From positions 1 through 36,626 of IMG/VR virus record IMGVR_UViG_3300020037_000280: a stretch of DNA of 36,626 nt; one strand, written 5' to 3'. Origin of the DNA: a virus. The notes under the pieces were generated by a model. It was not told the origin of the DNA. It did no database searches and saw nothing but the letters and a program-made list of their open reading frames with translations. The position numbers and the translations under genes are program-made. Shown in pieces: positions 3,069-36,626 of this stretch; position 1 is the first letter of the stretch; each line of letters opens with the position of its first letter.

Positions 3069-3412
3069 GCTGTCACCCCCTGCACAATTTCATCTTCAAT
3101 TTGGCTAATCAATCCTTCTGATAAAACATCTTCAGCTTTGAGCCATTGACCATCAATCCAAACTGATAGCACGTTGACTTGTGCATCAAAAGATGGGTCT
3201 GTTCCTGTTTCGATTTGTGCAGGGTCAAACTCGTATGACACCCAAAGATTTGCGCCATATGCTTCAGTGCAGTGGAGTCCTTCACCAACAGGTGCGCTTG
3301 CAGGTTCTTTCTCAGCGCGTAGAGTTGCAACGATTCTGTAAGCGTTGTCTAGCTTGGCTTTCAATGCGCCAACTTCTTGCGACAGTCTTGTGATTTGTTC
3401 TAGCATGTTCAC
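3065..3412 (-). CDS. First gene of the leftward early operon, hypothetical (115 aa)
   Basis: Strong SD (ccaaggagtgaacATG on the minus strand). N-terminal coiled-coil-like segment. No repressor-like HTH seen. Confidence 0.7.
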   Translation of the reverse strand: MNMLEQITRLSQEVGALKAKLDNAYRIVATLRAEKEPASAPVGEGLHCTEAYGANLWVSYEFDPAQIETGTDPSFDAQVNVLSVWIDGQWLKAEDVLSEGLISQIEDEIVQGVTA

Positions 3413-3439
3413 TCCTTGGTTTAGTTAAGAGTTCGTTTA

Positions 3440-3468
3440 GTGATATGCCCCAAGCAATAACAGGTCAA
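3440..3468 (-). promoter_or_regulatory. Candidate leftward early promoter (TTGACC-17-TATCAC)
   Basis: Minus-strand TTGACC (3468-3463), a 17-nt spacer, then TATCAC (3445-3440), about 20 nt upstream of the SD/ATG at 3412. Confidence 0.45.
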
Positions 3469-3546
3469 ATTGTTAATAAATAACCTGAAGCACATCTCTA
3501 AACAAACTCTGCTTTATCGACAACACTAATTTGCAGCCGATGATGG

Positions 3547-3645
3547 ATTGTAAACCAAATTACAGAACTTCTGCGAATTATTTTATACTCCCGAAGCATT
3601 ATAGGGTTTATACCTATGTAAGTTTGATTAAATTAGGTTTACAAT
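3547..3645. promoter_or_regulatory. 10-bp inverted repeat pair (ATTGTAAACC / GGTTTACAAT), candidate operator half-sites
   Basis: attgtaaacc at 3547-3556 and its exact reverse complement ggtttacaat at 3636-3645. A related gggtttatacc lies at 3604-3614. Confidence 0.4.
3560..3589 (+). promoter_or_regulatory. Candidate rightward early promoter (TTACAG-18-TATACT)
   Basis: TTACAG at 3560-3565, an 18-nt spacer, then TATACT at 3584-3589. The -35 abuts the ATTGTAAACC repeat arm. Confidence 0.4.
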
Positions 3646-3652
3646 CGCGTTT

Positions 3653-3865
3653 ATGAACAAATCTTATGCTATCCAACTGTTAGGCGGCACAGCGTCAAAA
3701 GCTGCACGAACTATAGGCAGAACGCCACAGGCCGTTATCCAATGGCCTGACCCATTAACCGAGCGCATACAAGAGACGGTAGAGTTCCACTTTAACAGAT
3801 TACCACCATCACAAAAGCGTAAAAACAAAGCTAAAGCAGAAGCGTTATTAAGGGGGCAAGAATGA
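3653..3865 (+). CDS. Cro / YdaS-like HTH regulator (70 aa)
   Basis: AIQLLGGTASKAARTIGRTPQAVIQW matches the YdaS/Cro-type HTH pattern. It is the first gene of the rightward operon next to the divergent control region. Confidence 0.6.
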   Translation: MNKSYAIQLLGGTASKAARTIGRTPQAVIQWPDPLTERIQETVEFHFNRLPPSQKRKNKAKAEALLRGQE

Positions 3866-4077
3866 ATGGTAAAAAACTAGAAAAAATTGATAGCGCGGAC
3901 TTGAAAATGATACGCGAAAGATACAGCCTAAACGGTGGTGTAACAGTACGAGGAATGCTGACTCTTATTGATGCAGTGCAGGTTGTATTTTGCGAAAAAA
4001 ATGGATTGACGTTAAGAGATTCAGAAACTGAATTAAGCGAAAGAATCAAACAATTTAAAAAGGCGTTGGAAGCATGA
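3862..4077 (+). CDS. Hypothetical early protein (71 aa)
   Basis: ATGA overlap with the upstream stop. No domain recognised. Confidence 0.6.
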   Translation: MNGKKLEKIDSADLKMIRERYSLNGGVTVRGMLTLIDAVQVVFCEKNGLTLRDSETELSERIKQFKKALEA

Positions 4078-4298
4078 AGCTATCTAAACATAACGCCTTT
4101 ACCCCAAACCTCTGCGCTATAACTGGCAACGTTCGTACTAGCAGCATTGTCATTGCACAGCTAACCCCACAGCAGTACAGAAAAGAGCCAAAGACAGCAT
4201 CAGACATTACTGCATTTATGTCACCTAGCGCACAGATAGTTATCGGTACTAAAGCTGATTCTGATAAACGCGTTTCATTTAGCAAGGCGCGGATATAG
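4074..4298 (+). CDS. Hypothetical early protein (74 aa)
   Basis: ATGA overlap with the upstream stop. No domain recognised. Confidence 0.55.
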   Translation: MKLSKHNAFTPNLCAITGNVRTSSIVIAQLTPQQYRKEPKTASDITAFMSPSAQIVIGTKADSDKRVSFSKARI

Positions 4299-4378
4299 TT
4301 TGCGATTGTAGAAAAAGCAAACCCCATAATCATAAGCCAATGATTACAGGGTTTTAACCAAAAATAAGGAGGTATTTT

Positions 4379-6589
4379 ATGGCTAATGATATTTTATACG
4401 AGGATTTTATAAAATCCAAACGGCGAACAGAGATTGCTACAGGACATACTCCGGGCGAGTTAAACGAGCATTTATTCGATTTTCAACACGCCATTGTTTC
4501 GTGGGCTGTGAGGCGTGGACGCGCCGCCATATTCGCAGATACTGGACTAGGAAAAACTTTAATGCAGCTCTCATGGGCTGACGAGGTGTCAACGTATAGC
4601 GATGGCATTGTTTTGATTTTAGCTCCATTGGCTGTATCAGAGCAGACTATTGAACAGGGCGCTACTTTTGGTATTGAAGTTAAACGAGTGCCAGAGGGTG
4701 AAACTCCTAAGAATAGCGGAGTTTGGATTACCAACTATGAGCGAATAAATGCAATAGACTTTGATTCATTGACTGGTATTGTGCTGGATGAATCAAGCAT
4801 TTTGAAAAGCCATGATGGTAAAACAAGGACTGCAATTATTCAATCATGCCAGTCAATACCGTACCGACTAAGCTGCACAGCTACGCCAAGCCCTAATGAC
4901 TTCGAGGAATTAGGCAATCAGTGCGAGTTTTTAGGCGTAATGACACGGACTGAAATGCTCGCTACTTATTTTGTAAACGACGCAGGCGATACAGGTACAT
5001 GGATATTAAAAGGATGGGGGCAATCAAGATATTGGGAATGGATGGGGACTTGGTCTGTTGTATTGCGTAGTCCTGCTGATATTGGATTTGATGGGTCACG
5101 TTATGATTTGCCGAAACTTGAATATCATGAGCACGTAGTTGCAACTGACGTGATTGGCGATGAATTATTCTCACGGCCTGCTATGGGATTGGCAGAGCGT
5201 AGGAAAGCCCAAAGAGATAGCATCATTGAACGATGCAAAGCACTGGCCGAAGTCGTTAATTCAGAGCCGAATGAGCCGTGGTTGATTTGGTGTCATTTGA
5301 ACGATGAAGCAGAGATGCTGCAAAGCATGATTGCAGGGTCAGTTAATGTCCAAGGCTCTGACAAACCAGAAAGCAAAACAAAAAACCTGCTAGGGTTTGC
5401 GCATGGTGATATTCGCGTATTGATTAGCAAGCCAAAAATAGCAGGCTACGGCATGAATTGGCAACACTGCGCGCGCATGGCGTTTGTCGGTCTTGACGAT
5501 TCATTTGAAAAGTTTTATCAAGCCGTGCGCAGGTGCTATAGATTCGGGCAAAAGCGCGAAGTCCAAGTGCATATTTTCACGGCTGAAAATGAAGGACAGA
5601 TATTGCTAAATATCAAAAGAAAAGAAGCCCAACATCACAAAATGAGCATTAATATGATTGAACACATGAAAGATATTATGAATCAAGAATTAGCAGGTCA
5701 GGTAAATATCGTTGACACATACAAAGAAGATACGCATAAAGGCGATGGCTACACGATACACCTTGGAGATTGTGTGAAGTGGGCGCGTAGAATGGATGAC
5801 AACAGCGTTGATTATTCAGTATTTTCACCGCCATTTGCAGATCTATTTGTTTACTCAAACAGTGACCATGATATGGGGAATTGTCGCAATGATGATGAAT
5901 TTGTGGCTCAATTAAAATTTTTAATTACTGAGCTTTATAGAGTTATTAAACCCGGTCGCAATGTTTCATTCCATTGCATGAATCTGCCAACAACAAAAAT
6001 GCGTCAAGGGTTTATTGGGCTTCGCGACTTTAGGGGAGATTTGATCCGTGCATTCCAAGAAGCAGGTTTTATTTATCACTCAGAGGTTTGTATTTGGAAA
6101 GACCCAGTAGTCGCAATGCAGCGTACCAAAGCACTTGGGTTGCTGCATAAAACAATACGCGAAAACAGCACAATGAGCAGAATGGGGCTACCTGATTACG
6201 TTGTAACAATGCGAAAGCCGGGAGATTGTGAAGAACGCGTTACGCACGGCGATGACTTGCCAGTCTTAATGTGGCAAAAGTACGCCAGTCCTATTTGGGA
6301 CGATATTAACCAAAGTCGCACACTTAACAAAATGCCAGCGCGTGGTGAAAATGATGAAAAGCACATGTGTCCATTACAACTTGATGTCATTGAAAGATGT
6401 ATCCATCTTTGGACAAATAAGGGCGATGTTGTCTTTTCCCCGTTTACAGGAATTGGATCAGAGGGTTATACGGCTGTAAAAATGGATAGGAAATTTATAG
6501 GGACAGAATTAAAACCAGAATACTATGAACTTGCCTGCCAAAATATCAATGATGCTATGCGCGAAAATATGGACTTATTTGCAGCATAA
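4379..6589 (+). CDS. SNF2-family helicase fused to a beta-class N4/N6 DNA methyltransferase (736 aa)
   Basis: Strong SD taaggaggt. Helicase motifs ADTGLGKT (I), VLDESS (II), CTATPSPN (III) and QAVRRCYRFGQ (VI, SNF2-like). MTase motif IV DYSVFSPPFADLF precedes motif I FSPFTGIGSEG, which is the beta permutation. Confidence 0.85.
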   Translation: MANDILYEDFIKSKRRTEIATGHTPGELNEHLFDFQHAIVSWAVRRGRAAIFADTGLGKTLMQLSWADEVSTYSDGIVLILAPLAVSEQTIEQGATFGIEVKRVPEGETPKNSGVWITNYERINAIDFDSLTGIVLDESSILKSHDGKTRTAIIQSCQSIPYRLSCTATPSPNDFEELGNQCEFLGVMTRTEMLATYFVNDAGDTGTWILKGWGQSRYWEWMGTWSVVLRSPADIGFDGSRYDLPKLEYHEHVVATDVIGDELFSRPAMGLAERRKAQRDSIIERCKALAEVVNSEPNEPWLIWCHLNDEAEMLQSMIAGSVNVQGSDKPESKTKNLLGFAHGDIRVLISKPKIAGYGMNWQHCARMAFVGLDDSFEKFYQAVRRCYRFGQKREVQVHIFTAENEGQILLNIKRKEAQHHKMSINMIEHMKDIMNQELAGQVNIVDTYKEDTHKGDGYTIHLGDCVKWARRMDDNSVDYSVFSPPFADLFVYSNSDHDMGNCRNDDEFVAQLKFLITELYRVIKPGRNVSFHCMNLPTTKMRQGFIGLRDFRGDLIRAFQEAGFIYHSEVCIWKDPVVAMQRTKALGLLHKTIRENSTMSRMGLPDYVVTMRKPGDCEERVTHGDDLPVLMWQKYASPIWDDINQSRTLNKMPARGENDEKHMCPLQLDVIERCIHLWTNKGDVVFSPFTGIGSEGYTAVKMDRKFIGTELKPEYYELACQNINDAMRENMDLFAA

Positions 6590-34258: not shown

Positions 34259-34671
34259 AACGTATATTTTTAGCACTTGCAATCGTTCTTACATTTACAG
34301 GCTGTGCCAGCACCGATTACGCACAATACGCATCTATCCATGTCGAACGGTCAAAAACCGAAGCGGCACGCTATGACGCACTTGCCAGCATTGCCCGTCA
34401 TTCAAACGACCAAACAACCCGTGTAGCTGCGGCTATGGCTTTAGCTATGGGTGGCAGTGCCAATGTAACAGGCGGTGCGGTATCAGCACCACAAAATGAG
34501 GCTTTGGCTTGGGGTAACTTGTTGGTCAATGGTGCAACTAGCCTCTATGGCTTGCGCGTAGGTGCTGCCATTAAATTAGGCGACATGAGCCGCGGTGCAG
34601 CCGATAAAGACGTACTGAATAACGCCATGTCAACATTGGACATTATCCGTAACACCGACACAGTTAAATGA
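34255..34671 (+). CDS. Lipoprotein (138 aa)
   Basis: Signal peptide plus lipobox MKRIFLALAIVLTFTGC. ATGA-coupled on both sides. Confidence 0.7.
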   Translation: MKRIFLALAIVLTFTGCASTDYAQYASIHVERSKTEAARYDALASIARHSNDQTTRVAAAMALAMGGSANVTGGAVSAPQNEALAWGNLLVNGATSLYGLRVGAAIKLGDMSRGAADKDVLNNAMSTLDIIRNTDTVK

Positions 34672-35144
34672 AGTGGTACGACCTATTCAACCCGTTCAAG
34701 TGGAGCGAAGTAGCTTTACAGATAGCGGGCGGTGCAATCATGTTTATAGCTTTAGCTTGGTTTGGGAATCGGTGGTTGTCCAATTACTACACGGAAGAAC
34801 TGAAAGAAGCGCAAAAGCAAGCCACAGCGAAAGCGGACGCGATAGTGACGGCGCGGAACCTGGAAAACGAACGGAGACGAAATGAAGCACTCACAGCACA
34901 AAAGCAGAAACTGGAGTCTAACCTTGCTGACGCTCGCAGTGCTGATGCTGCTTCTGCCAGCTTGCGAGACGATATACGTACCCTCCAAGACCGAAGTCAA
35001 AACGACCTTACCGCCTGTAGAAACTACGCCAGTTCCACGACAGAGCTATTCATTGCAATTGACGAATTTGCGTCTTGGCTTGCAAAAGAAGCAGATGGAC
35101 AAGCCTTAGATAAAAAGGCTTGCTATGATGCTTGGCCTAAGTAG
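34668..35144 (+). CDS. i-spanin (Rz-like, DUF2514-type)
   Basis: N-terminal TM VALQIAGGAIMFIALAWF, then a coiled-coil periplasmic domain. It contains an embedded +1-frame lipoprotein ORF. Confidence 0.8.
   Translation: MKWYDLFNPFKWSEVALQIAGGAIMFIALAWFGNRWLSNYYTEELKEAQKQATAKADAIVTARNLENERRRNEALTAQKQKLESNLADARSADAASASLRDDIRTLQDRSQNDLTACRNYASSTTELFIAIDEFASWLAKEADGQALDKKACYDAWPK
34882..35109 (+). CDS. o-spanin (Rz1-like), fully embedded in the i-spanin gene
   Basis: Signal peptide with a lipobox-like LLLPAC. The mature part of about 48 aa is Pro-rich (TTLPPVETTPVP). Embedded architecture as in lambda Rz/Rz1. Confidence 0.7.
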   Translation: MKHSQHKSRNWSLTLLTLAVLMLLLPACETIYVPSKTEVKTTLPPVETTPVPRQSYSLQLTNLRLGLQKKQMDKP

Positions 35145-35173
35145 TTGACAACGCGAAAATTATCTGTTAAAGT
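35145..35173 (+). promoter_or_regulatory. Near-consensus sigma70 promoter TTGACA-17-TAAAGT (copy 1)
   Basis: ttgaca 35145-35150, a 17-nt spacer, taaagt 35168-35173. Starts on the base after the spanin stop codon. A 45-nt block is duplicated at 35907-35951. Confidence 0.65.
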
Positions 35174-35179
35174 ATGGGT

Positions 35180-35540
35180 TCTTAGGTTGGAATTTACTAG
35201 AAATTTCTATTAACGAACTAAAGGACTTTGATATGTGACACTTATCGAAACCAAGGCGCTACTTAGGTAGCTGCCAAACGCATACTGATTGATACCTAAC
35301 CTCCAAGGCTTAAGGATGTGGTGCTTGGCAGTCAGTAGCCGTTTGGTGAATGTGTAGGCTGATGCACTTGTACGTTAGCGCGTATTTTTCCAAAGCCAGA
35401 GTTCAGCACTGGCCACCAATTAAATGCGGCTAAGACCCGACAAGCCCGTTTGAAATAGCGGGATAAGACAAGCCCAAGCCCCGCTTGGTAATGTCTGGAA
35501 CAACCCTCCCGCCATCACTGGTAGGAGGGTTGTTTTTTTT
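35180..35540 (+). ncRNA. Candidate ~360-nt structured non-coding RNA of unknown family
   Basis: Bounded by the promoter above and a strong terminator. No ORF exceeds 23 codons. Multiple local helices and repeated TAAGAC/CAAGCCC motifs. The 5' end is inferred, not measured. Confidence 0.45.
35501..35540 (+). terminator. Strong intrinsic terminator
   Basis: caaccctcc / ggagggttg 9-bp stem, a 14-nt loop with an inner cca/tgg helix, then T8 (35533-35540). Confidence 0.85.
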
Positions 35541-35651
35541 CGCCTAAAAGATACGACTTTGATATTTTAAGCATTTGGCGGATGGCTTCAGGGTCTAGCA
35601 TTTGGGTCATGCTGCTTTACCTATCTCAGCAGCGGCGCGAGCTTGCAGTAA

Positions 35652-35747
35652 TTCATTGCAATTGACGAATTTGCGGGAAAAACTGCGGTTGCGGCTGACG
35701 GTCACGCCTTAGATAAACGGGCTTGCTATGATGCTTGGCCTCGTTGA
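35652..35747 (+). pseudogene. Remnant of a second spanin 3' end (Rz and Rz1 frames both recognisable)
   Basis: The remnant encodes FIAIDEFAGKTAVAADGHALDKRACYDAWPR*, compared with FIAIDEFASWLAKEADGQALDKKACYDAWPK* in the intact gene. A 25-nt identical core (35651-35675 = 35048-35072) is shared. An in-frame TAA lies directly upstream (35649-35651). Confidence 0.8.
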
Positions 35748-35773: not shown

Positions 35774-35880
35774 AATTGGCCCTTTTGTCTATTTAGATAA
35801 TGAATTTATTGGCAACTCATTGATTCATAACAAAAATATGGAATTGGCCCTTTTCATTATCCAAGCGCCTAGATAATGAA
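35774..35880. repeat. Direct repeats AATTGGCCCTTTT (x2) and TAGATAATGAA (x2) upstream of promoter copy 2
   Basis: aattggccctttt at 35774 and 35842. tagataatgaa at 35794 and 35870. Further catagata motifs at about 35885 and 35897. Confidence 0.8.
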
Positions 35881-35909
35881 ACGCATAGATACTTGCATAG
35901 ATAAAATAG

Positions 35910-35938
35910 TTGACAACGCGAAAATTATCTGGTAAGGT
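35910..35938 (+). promoter_or_regulatory. sigma70 promoter copy 2, TTGACA-17-TAAGGT
   Basis: The 45-nt block 35907-35951 differs from 35142-35186 at only 2 positions. Confidence 0.6.
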
Positions 35939-35959
35939 ATGGGTTCTTAGGAGTTCAAA

Positions 35960-36016
35960 ATGAAAGACTTAAATCCAGTTAGTATTATTACAAACGGTGG
36001 CGGCAGTGGTAGCTAG
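35960..36016 (+). CDS. 18-codon small ORF MKDLNPVSIITNGGGSGS
   Basis: SD taggag lies 7 nt upstream of the ATG and about 14 nt downstream of the predicted TSS of promoter copy 2. Whether it is translated is untested. Confidence 0.35.
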   Translation: MKDLNPVSIITNGGGSGS

Positions 36017-36064
36017 AATCGGTTTCTATCTCTGCATTGGCTACTACTAATTTTTCATCAGTAG

Positions 36065-36391
36065 TCATTTCACACCTCGTTTAACCAAATCAATTACAAG
36101 AAGTGCCGCAGCTTTTTCGATTGAATCTGATGGCACATAATCGACAGAGAAATCATCGTGGCAAAGAACGGCAGCATTTTGGCGAAATTGCGTAGTTATT
36201 CCCCAATGCTTGCATATCGCTACAAATACCACAGGCTCGCGGTAGTCGAATATCCGAAGATACCCGTTCTTATTGCAAAACACATGAGTAAATTTAATAC
36301 CGACTTCATTAGGAAGAATTTTCGATGCACTTGTGAATCGCCACCCCAACCTCTTAGCCAGCGCGATGTTTATTTGTAAGTCTGAGGCCAT
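36065..36391 (-). CDS. Last gene of the leftward operon, DUF2591/NinX-like hypothetical protein (108 aa)
   Basis: The pattern INIALAKRLGW...FDYREPVVFVAICKHWGI...AAALLVIDLV resembles DUF2591 phage proteins. Weak recognition. Confidence 0.6.
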   Translation of the reverse strand: MASDLQINIALAKRLGWRFTSASKILPNEVGIKFTHVFCNKNGYLRIFDYREPVVFVAICKHWGITTQFRQNAAVLCHDDFSVDYVPSDSIEKAAALLVIDLVKRGVK

Positions 36392-36537: not shown

Positions 36538-36626
36538 AAGCCACCTCTCAAGATTCCCAAGGCGGCTTCTGCATCACGATAAATATCAATGTAGTGAGGC
36601 GGTTCATTGCCGCGCAAATTTTTGTA
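36506..36626. repeat. Right copy of the 121-bp terminal direct repeat
   Basis: Identical to 1-121. It contains the 3' end of the 29..583 ORF and the start of the 36370..36537 ORF. Confidence 0.95.

Follow-up and report, generated by a model that had tools for sequence, protein, structure and literature searches.

An accessory non-coding RNA cassette built of separable modules behind the lysis genes of a complete phage genome

The subject of this work is the interval 35145-35540 of a viral DNA sequence of 36,626 nucleotides (nt), IMG/VR record IMGVR_UViG_3300020037_000280, the whole of which is referred to here as the window. We show by sequence comparison that this interval is an accessory, non-coding transcription unit with a predicted promoter of its own, placed between the stop codon of the spanin gene and the terminator of the late operon. 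The same comparisons show that the cassette is built of separable RNA modules, two of which, a long hairpin (H4) and a three-helix element resembling part of a transfer RNA (tRNA), belong to wider module families. In other phages members of these families are found either just upstream of tRNA genes or in the 5' leaders that long operons have between nutL and an N-like gene or between Q/tR' and the lysis genes. We tentatively propose, with a probability of roughly 0.4, that the cassette is a composite in which leader-derived modules process or stabilise an invariant 3' RNA, and that this 3' RNA acts in trans. A first-pass annotation, made from the window alone, had predicted a structured RNA moron with its own transcription and without an open reading frame (ORF), and that prediction is borne out by two promoter alleles, a covarying terminator, the lack of a conserved frame and the absence of the unit from close relatives. 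It had not seen the partial duplication around the cassette, its modular mosaic or its homology to lambdoid leader RNAs.

A predicted transcription unit with an exchangeable body

The putative promoter of the unit, P_A, matches the consensus at 10 of 12 positions, carries a TG before the -10 hexamer (an extended -10) and is the top-scoring site between 34000 and 36626; its first base directly follows the spanin stop codon, just as the first-pass annotation had it. From its position the transcript would start near 35178-35181. A second promoter allele found in relatives, TTGACA-17-TAATAT, has an unrelated spacer, and only the -35, the TGn and the -10 are common to the two. At the other end, the hairpin terminator had been described as a stem of 9 base pairs (bp) followed by T8; the T8 is there, but the stem has arms of 16 nt, 88% complementary, and is stronger than described. 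Among the three terminator alleles of the relatives, two pairs are fully compensatory and four are changed on one side, wobble pairs among them, and the same terminator ends the late operon in relatives without the RNA body.

Against shuffled controls, the whole RNA has a fold z-score of -4.28 on the plus strand versus -1.97 on the minus strand, the RNA minus its terminator -2.60 versus -0.43, and the part from 35376 to 35497 -4.14 versus -0.03, its minimum free energy structure making up 36% of the ensemble. The excess of structure over the controls is thus confined to the plus strand. The helices, the copies of TAAGAC and CAAGCCC and the start-stop ATG-TGA behind AAGGA (35233-35238) that had been listed earlier all lie within one base of the positions given for them. 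As repeats the short copies amount to less than had been suggested, the only internal repeat being a 9-mer, GACAAGCCC, which occurs twice and is equalled or beaten in 4 of 200 shuffles. The statement that no plus-strand ORF exceeds 23 codons was wrong, since a 27-codon ATG ORF lies on that strand at 35350-35433. Its frame is without a start codon in two of the architectures found among relatives (loci L036 and L027). A minus-strand ORF at 35420-35518 was rejected as a gene because, by our own reading, its frame differs between terminator alleles.

The slot was followed through related metagenomic loci, about 40 in number and for the most part of wastewater or digester origin, obtained by exact-protein look-ups with the spanin, a neighbouring 108-amino-acid (aa) protein and spanin homologues as queries. 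Across these relatives it shows at least nine states, and the variants always follow the spanin gene (L001-L043). Neither RNA nor terminator is present in the slot of L033-35; in L044-47 the terminator alone stands about 40 nt past the spanin stop, the RNA body being absent; and L036-43 carry a minimal RNA of 195 nt (fold z-score -4.26). The form in the window is 361 nt long and the range across loci is 195-405 nt. Further forms have other H4 tips, another middle module (V2), the other promoter allele with another 5' end, or an 18-codon ORF in front. The 5' module is identical in L010, L011, L019 and L014, and is another sequence in L022 and L030; in L027 the 18-codon ORF stands in its place.

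What is constant within the lineage is only the last ~115 nt and the terminator. Positions 35385-35498 are 97-100% identical, versus 82-91% for the body of the spanin gene, and the 3' domain proper (35420-35498) is 95.5-100% identical in all cassette-bearing loci, remaining constant through seven different upstream architectures. The substitutions in its hairpin 35474-35488 turn C-G into U-G and A-U into G-U, so that pairing is kept on the plus strand only. In INPHARED no match extended past hairpin 2 of the three-helix element into this domain. Because there is no conserved frame, because the minus-strand frame shifts and because some relatives do without the unit, we regard it as non-coding, accessory and modular, in other words as a moron. 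It has its own promoter and its own or an adjacent terminator, in a fixed slot, and its presence varies among close relatives, in keeping with the outline of a moron as a unit of independent transcription that a phage operon has gained (Juhala et al., 2000, cited in PMC4104026).

Database searches matched the RNA to no tRNA, transfer-messenger RNA (tmRNA) or Rfam family. In the window, the V2 variant and three isolate phages, Rfam 15 gave nothing at gathering scores, nor when the filters were relaxed and hits up to E ≤ 10 admitted, the best match being a sub-threshold PyrR-like hairpin/terminator (22.9 bits against a gathering score of 54), and ARAGORN called no tRNA or tmRNA in the window or in L051-L054. 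BLAST with the whole cassette against phages, plasmids and E. coli genomes found nothing; homologues of its modules surfaced only with short queries at a relaxed E-value. Exact-pattern and protein scans of IMG/VR gave chance hits in coding genes (L015-17, L048-49) and one true match, L050; a scan of genome contigs gave L020 and L021 only, both chance coding matches; and a metagenome scan added one locus, L019.

Leader-type modules in the cassette

The central part of the RNA contains the three-helix element, in which a closing stem (P1) encloses hairpin 1, an insert and hairpin 2. It corresponds to the middle module V1 with its flanks and is the most widely conserved stretch of the cassette. 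Its signature reads GUGAAUG, a 4-5 bp stem with a GGCUGA loop, an insert, GCCRG-RWUCAGCA-CYGGC and a strand complementary to the 5' flank; written from other phages, it has one match in the window (35346-35415), where 0 are expected by chance. The element lies in unannotated DNA of the E. coli phages ep3 and HC6, of KsaM-C1, and of Klebsiella phage KP591P1 and its relatives, and likewise in Cronobacter ES2, Pantoea PA-1, Aeromonas 2_D05, the P22-like IME10 and an Stx2c phage. Out of 5,426 complete E. coli genomes, 143 carry one single allele of it, at a place where no feature is annotated. Phage lambda has an H4-like helix and a degenerate element just after tR'. A 491-nt region of ep3 matches 191 INPHARED records, although many of these share the H4-like helix only and some terminator matches are unrelated.

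The three helices are supported by covariation in eight distinct, related sequences, aligned with the insert removed by hand and with a structure derived from these same sequences: 95.4% of the cells are paired and 8 of 19 pairs are compensatory, a value as high being reached in 0 of 500 column shuffles. When the partners were slid by 1-3 columns as a control, 0-2 compensatory pairs remained. P1, for example, is GUUGUGGUG/CACCACAAC in ep3 and UUGGUG/CACCAA in the window, while IME10 and the Stx2c phage have GAUUGGAUG/CAUCCAAUC. The central module is thus a covarying fold common to many phages.

Hairpin 2 directly abuts the 3' strand of P1, as a T-arm does the acceptor strand of a tRNA. In Yersinia phage P400 the loop at this position is a canonical T-loop, GGUUCGAGUCC, while that of the window, AGUUCAGCA, is non-canonical. 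ACCA follows P1 in two of the eight sequences (KP591P1 and IME10/Stx2c), and in KP591P1 a tRNA-Ser gene starts one base past it, the element ending 5 nt before; in HC6 a tRNA-Ile gene lies about 100 nt downstream. In the LF82 prophage the element is found between a cI-type repressor gene and a 99-aa ORF. The ORF matching the latter in the near-identical Stx2c sequence starts, by our own translation, with MTVVITYLADDNARNRRRARRQ and is arginine-rich and N-like, and in IME10 GCTCTTTAACA and a hairpin stand just upstream. Going by what is known of nut sites, we take the location in LF82, Stx2c and IME10, after cI/boxA-boxB and ahead of such an ORF, to be the N leader. In Cronobacter ES2 the element lies between the antitermination protein and the lysozyme, in the late leader, as does the degenerate copy of lambda. 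Since these contexts are sites at which long transcripts are cut or tRNAs mature, we infer that the element may be a tRNA-like processing or recognition signal, and the stacking of hairpin 2 on P1, together with the same contexts, suggests that ribonuclease (RNase) P may recognise it. It is neither a tRNA nor a tmRNA, having no anticodon arm, no call from any tool and an encoded CCA in only two of eight sequences.

A bolder reading, which we consider rather unlikely, is that the element represents an unrecognised class of phage tRNA mimic within transcripts, a "cut here" or "bind here" signal for the host tRNA-processing machinery. Such a signal would separate the antitermination complex from the message in N and late leaders, would prime processing at tRNA clusters and, in the present cassette, would bring a trans-acting 3' RNA to maturity or shield it, or else serve as a decoy against tRNA-directed defences. 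It should be noted that coding sequences annotated as "hypothetical protein" overlie the RNA modules in P400 (L051, 1353-1550) and Pantoea PA-1 (L060, 902-1270); these are probably spurious calls.

The long hairpin H4, which precedes the element, is itself composed of exchangeable parts. Its lower stem is the same in L019 and L022, which carry two other tips, and its tip recurs in the lambdoid viral contig L050 of IMG/VR. There the 16-nt loop is identical and the 5' internal loop similar, while the tip stem (5 bp) and the lower stem (8 bp) are wholly different in sequence and still complementary. By our own reading the L050 copy is flanked by a boxA/boxB-like nutL and by an ORF whose N-terminus is rich in arginine. 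In P400 a copy of the tip, again with the loop and internal loop on unrelated but complementary stems, directly precedes a stretch with a 9-bp closing stem and the canonical T-arm, and in lambda, ep3 and KsaM-C1 an equivalent long helix ends ...CCGUUGUGGUG. The lambda N leader carries a hairpin for RNase III, a double-strand RNase, and by analogy H4 may be its counterpart. The long helix opens with CACAACA in lambda (L055, 386-462), ep3, KsaM-C1 and HC6 (L052, L053 and L058 being among the loci), a heptamer quoted in connection with AgvB as the consensus that the R1 seed of GcvB targets (PMC4104026). The GUUGU of its outer strand can pair upstream (with ACAAC) or downstream (with CACCACAAC), an alternative that could constitute a structural switch. 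A role of the cassette as a sponge for CsrA was considered, as one AAGGAUGU loop fits the consensus from systematic evolution of ligands by exponential enrichment, and was rejected because six GGA motifs in 361 nt are about what chance gives and because the motif is missing from the other H4 tip alleles. Likewise, the similarity of UCUAUUAACGAA in the 5' module to boxA is too weak to be claimed.

The slot and its surroundings

The window is a complete circular phage genome, in which 36561-36626 repeat 56-121 and, by extension, the last ~121 bases repeat the first ~121, and its nearest isolated phages are only distant (portal identity ~25%). The cassette occupies part of a 920-nt gap between the spanin gene on the plus strand and a convergent early-left operon on the minus strand (Table 1). 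The genes for NinB, NinG and an O-like replication protein are those of a lambdoid early region, yet the lysis genes stand at the end of the late operon. Neither an integrase nor a CI-type repressor was recognised with Pfam and PHROGs in the set scanned, which comprised 3412-4379 and all early ORFs; by our reading of the translation, an ORF at 3653-3865 encodes a Cro-like helix-turn-helix protein. An attP site or the 3' end of a host gene is unsupported as an origin of the 3' domain, no integrase having been found and a 20-mer of that domain occurring in no bacterial genome scanned.

Table 1. Positions of the cassette, its modules and its neighbours in the window
Feature	Positions	Strand	Details
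Late genes	spanin 34668-35144	+	holin, endolysin, then Rz-like spanin; end of late genes
Promoter P_A	35145-35173	+	TTGACA, 17-nt spacer ending in TG, TAAAGT; from promoter scan
5' module	35189-35238	+	7-bp hairpin with ACUAG loop (35189-35207); AAGGA and start-stop ATG-TGA (35221-35238); exchangeable
Long hairpin H4	35274-35346	+	tip CCAAG/CUUGG with loop GCUUAAGGAUGUGGUG (35301-35328), preceded by 5' internal loop ending ACCU
Three-helix element	35343-35419	+	P1 5' strand UUGGUG (35343-35348), AAU, hairpin 1 (35352-35367, loop GGCUGA), 27-nt insert
Three-helix element, 3' part		+	hairpin 2 (35395-35413, loop AGUUCAGCA); P1 3' strand CACCAA (35414-35419)
3' domain	35420-35498	+	single-stranded AUUAAAUGCGGCUAAGACCCGACAAG; hairpin 35445-35462; nested hairpin 35466-35496 with inner stem 35474-35488
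Intrinsic terminator	35499-35540	+	16-bp stem (arms 35499-35514 / 35519-35534) and T8
Operator-like repeats	35776-35903		upstream of P_B only; all above shuffle expectation
18-codon ORF	35961-36017	+	MKDLNPVSIITNGGGSGS; strong AGGAG Shine-Dalgarno; behind P_B
Early operon	ends near 36065	-	SSB, HNH, Sak and small ORFs; convergent with the late genes

Beyond the terminator, the last ~90 nt of the spanin gene (35048-35138) are repeated at 35651-35741 with 78-88% identity, and the promoter with the first transcribed bases is repeated at 35904-35951 with 94% identity (copy P_B). From these two copies we conclude that the slot in the window is a recombinant, partly duplicated version; in L030, too, a remnant of the spanin 3' end lies upstream of the RNA promoter. 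The operator-like repeats consist of TAGATAATGAA three times, two copies of it forming a 30-bp palindrome at 35852-35881, and of TTGGCCCTTTT and GCATAGATA twice each. Most relatives have such repeats upstream of their RNA promoter, while P_A in the window does not. The 18-codon ORF behind P_B is probably a real micro-protein gene; in L027-29 it recurs with two synonymous changes and a different stop codon, upstream of the RNA 3' domain and in one transcript with it.

Other insertions cluster around the slot. In L012 and L019 a 192-aa gene, identified by Pfam as Mom in L012, is inserted exactly past the T-run of the terminator and is flanked by an 8-bp repeat, TTTCGCCT at window positions 35538-35545 and AGGCGAAA on the minus strand. 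The terminator hairpin encodes both the last residues of this gene, GEKKQPSYQ, and the C-terminus of a 31-aa minus-strand ORF of the window (35515-35610), for which a protein look-up returned no record; in L012 and L019 the small minus-strand ORF precedes mom. An element of about 70 nt, TGTGTAGCG...TGACAAACTCGCTTGTGTAGCC..., is found between the operator region and the promoter in L019 (724-790) and between two tandem terminators in L022 (4466-4530), and may be a small mobile element. Free-standing HNH_3 genes lie beside the spanin/RNA slot in L011, L022 and L027, and an IS605 OrfB/TnpB gene lies upstream of the holin in L023 (22-1086); genes of these two kinds may drive the local mosaicism.

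Possible function and comparison with known systems

We propose that host RNA polymerase transcribes an RNA of ~361 nt from P_A, probably constitutively, as P_A in the window is without the operator-like repeats found at P_B. The leader-type modules would then provide folding and processing signals, the tRNA-like element as an entry site for tRNA-processing enzymes of the RNase P type and H4 as a site for a double-strand RNase, as in the lambda N leader, and the two together would define and stabilise the 3' product. This product, the invariant two-hairpin domain ending in the U8 of the terminator, would be the working part. Its action would be in trans and its partner one of the host or of the phage, which it would meet either as an RNA of Hfq type, by base pairing or as a sponge, or as a decoy for a protein. 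Several observations weigh against this mechanism. In V2-type variants (L010, L011, L019, L027) hairpins 1 and 2 are replaced and the minimal form of L036 is without hairpin 1 and the 5' strand of P1; the element is thus dispensable in the lineage, and processing by tRNA enzymes is therefore not essential for the 3' domain. That domain may be nearly identical among loci because it spread horizontally not long ago, and not because it is constrained; 361 nt is long for an Hfq-type small RNA, and neither ARAGORN nor Rfam recognises the element as tRNA-like.

The T-arm-like stacking of hairpin 2 on P1, the canonical T-loop of P400, the ACCA in two of eight sequences and the position of the element at the head of phage tRNA clusters would all be in keeping with a tRNA-mimic decoy, in which the element, by itself or together with the remainder of the RNA, protects the infection by binding or titrating a host factor that recognises tRNA. 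Candidate targets are RNase P, the CCA-adding enzyme, a toxin that modifies acceptor ends or a defence nuclease directed at tRNA, and an accessory slot whose relatives have mom beside the terminator and HNH genes nearby would be a suitable place. We nevertheless consider a decoy unlikely, because the element has been lost from the V2 and minimal variants of the same cassette, because with no anticodon arm and a non-canonical T-loop in the window it is recognised as a tRNA by no tool, and because the prophage copies lie inside messenger RNA leaders and are not free genes.

A role in cis has less in its favour. With the last late gene before it and the late terminator behind it, the cassette must be included in late transcripts, and at a convergent junction it might act as a 3' untranslated region that stabilises the end of the lysis message or as an insulator that shields the late and early-left operons from each other, its promoter being incidental. 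This is quite unlikely, given that relatives manage with the terminator alone, that a near-consensus promoter is kept in two alleles and that the same modules elsewhere are in 5' leaders and not in 3' untranslated regions. It is somewhat less probable still that the interval is a recombination linker without RNA function, its conserved stretches being crossover points of mosaic genomes. The duplicated spanin end and promoter of the window, the spanin remnant in L030, the microhomologies at junctions that differ from one architecture to the next and the 8-bp repeats flanking inserted mom cassettes are consistent with a linker, but such DNA would not account for compensatory changes in the three helices of the element and in the terminator, for strand-specific folding or for wobble-only changes.

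The first-pass annotation had also raised the possibility of an immunity function. An antisense or repressor RNA that controls lysogeny in place of a protein repressor, as do P4 CI and P1 c4, would fit a phage with no recognised integrase or CI-type repressor, and variable modules could in principle set its specificity. We regard this as very improbable because relatives with 75-90% identical spanins have no RNA or have truncated or rearranged versions of it, and because the RNA has no significant complementarity to its own genome. The best antisense match is 14 nt in a tail gene (E = 0.04), and the duplex energies are within the shuffle range, although such an energy scan over long RNAs is a poor test of antisense pairing. 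The Cro-like ORF also speaks against an RNA in this role. Scarcely credible, finally, is a gene for a small Cys-containing protein at 35350-35433, whose 27-codon V1 and 37-codon V2 alleles share an ATG start, a frame, a TAA stop and the C-terminus PPIKCG, since the architectures of L036 and L027 have no start codon for it, its Shine-Dalgarno sequence is poorly spaced and helices for which there is covariation run through the ORF.

Neither RNA morons of phages nor tRNA-like elements are new as kinds; what is undescribed in Rfam 15 and in the annotations is this RNA family, its modular make-up and the three-helix element. In the literature we found the element described nowhere, the older subscription literature lying outside the search, so that an earlier description is possible. 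Phage non-coding RNAs are known but few families of them have been defined, and the cassette is a clear new example. Its covariation-supported fold is missing from Rfam 15, GenBank and the annotation of PGAP, and it is located in the N-gene leader of P22-like and Stx prophages, in the late leader from Q to the lysis genes and, in lytic phages of Escherichia and Klebsiella, at the head of tRNA clusters. Should the fold prove to be a signal for processing or a tRNA mimic, it would supply a step that has been missing from the regulation of phage operons under antitermination. For annotation, the lesson is that such intergenic gaps hold structured RNA and are not empty spacer or spurious small ORFs.

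Several known systems were compared with the cassette. A ToxI-like type III antitoxin, which has tandem repeats of 34-47 nt and a toxin gene on the same strand, does not fit a 9-mer in two copies and a terminator with no plus-strand gene past it. For a retron msr/msd, no reverse transcriptase was recognised among the early ORFs scanned and no plus-strand ORF adjoins the cassette. The PR'-6S-tR' module of lambda shares with it only the leader modules after tR', the cassette following the last late gene and facing the early-left operon. Inside the RNA there was no match to CRISPR-DR of Rfam at E ≤ 10. Racr RNA anti-CRISPRs are, as outlined in PMC10651486, solitary repeat units that closely mimic the CRISPR repeat of the host.

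The element invites comparison with RNAs that are tRNA-like in part. It shares with tmRNA a topology in which an acceptor-like strand on the 5' side is followed by a small D-like element and a long insert, and these by a hairpin resembling a T-arm and an acceptor-like strand on the 3' side. The same holds for YrlA-type RNAs; in both of these the two ends of a larger RNA come together to make up the tRNA-like domain. It differs from them in having no Rfam or ARAGORN match, no tag ORF and a 3' CCA encoded in only two of eight sequences, and in being internal to its transcript. RNAs linked to tRNAs include the 3'ETS-leuZ spacer and, from the tRNA cluster of T4, the stable RNAs named species 1 and 2. 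The t-elements of plant mitochondria are tRNA-like processing signals inside longer transcripts (PMC1920247). The phage element resembles these in placing a stack like that of acceptor and T-arm in a messenger RNA leader or beside tRNA genes, where cleavage would separate RNAs. Its closing stem, however, is up to 9 bp and not 7, a variable insert of 27-140 nt replaces the anticodon arm, tRNA finders miss it and its cleavage is only predicted.

For the cassette as a whole, the closest comparison is with AgvB and AsxR, anti-sRNAs of 51-60 nt with a conserved 3' region of ~42 nt and a variable 5' seed of 14-18 nt (Tree et al., 2014, PMC4104026). They are encoded by lambdoid prophages of enterohaemorrhagic E. 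coli, in the interval from Q to the lysis genes and 3' of PR' (PMC4104026). Length and position place the cassette outside that family, its RNA being 195-405 nt long, situated after the lysis genes and furnished with large structured modules, and the comparison is one of layout, not of sequence. In that layout, both are non-coding genes in moron slots whose 5' part varies, whereas the 3' part, closed by an intrinsic terminator, is highly conserved, and both occur as related, non-identical copies in many prophages.

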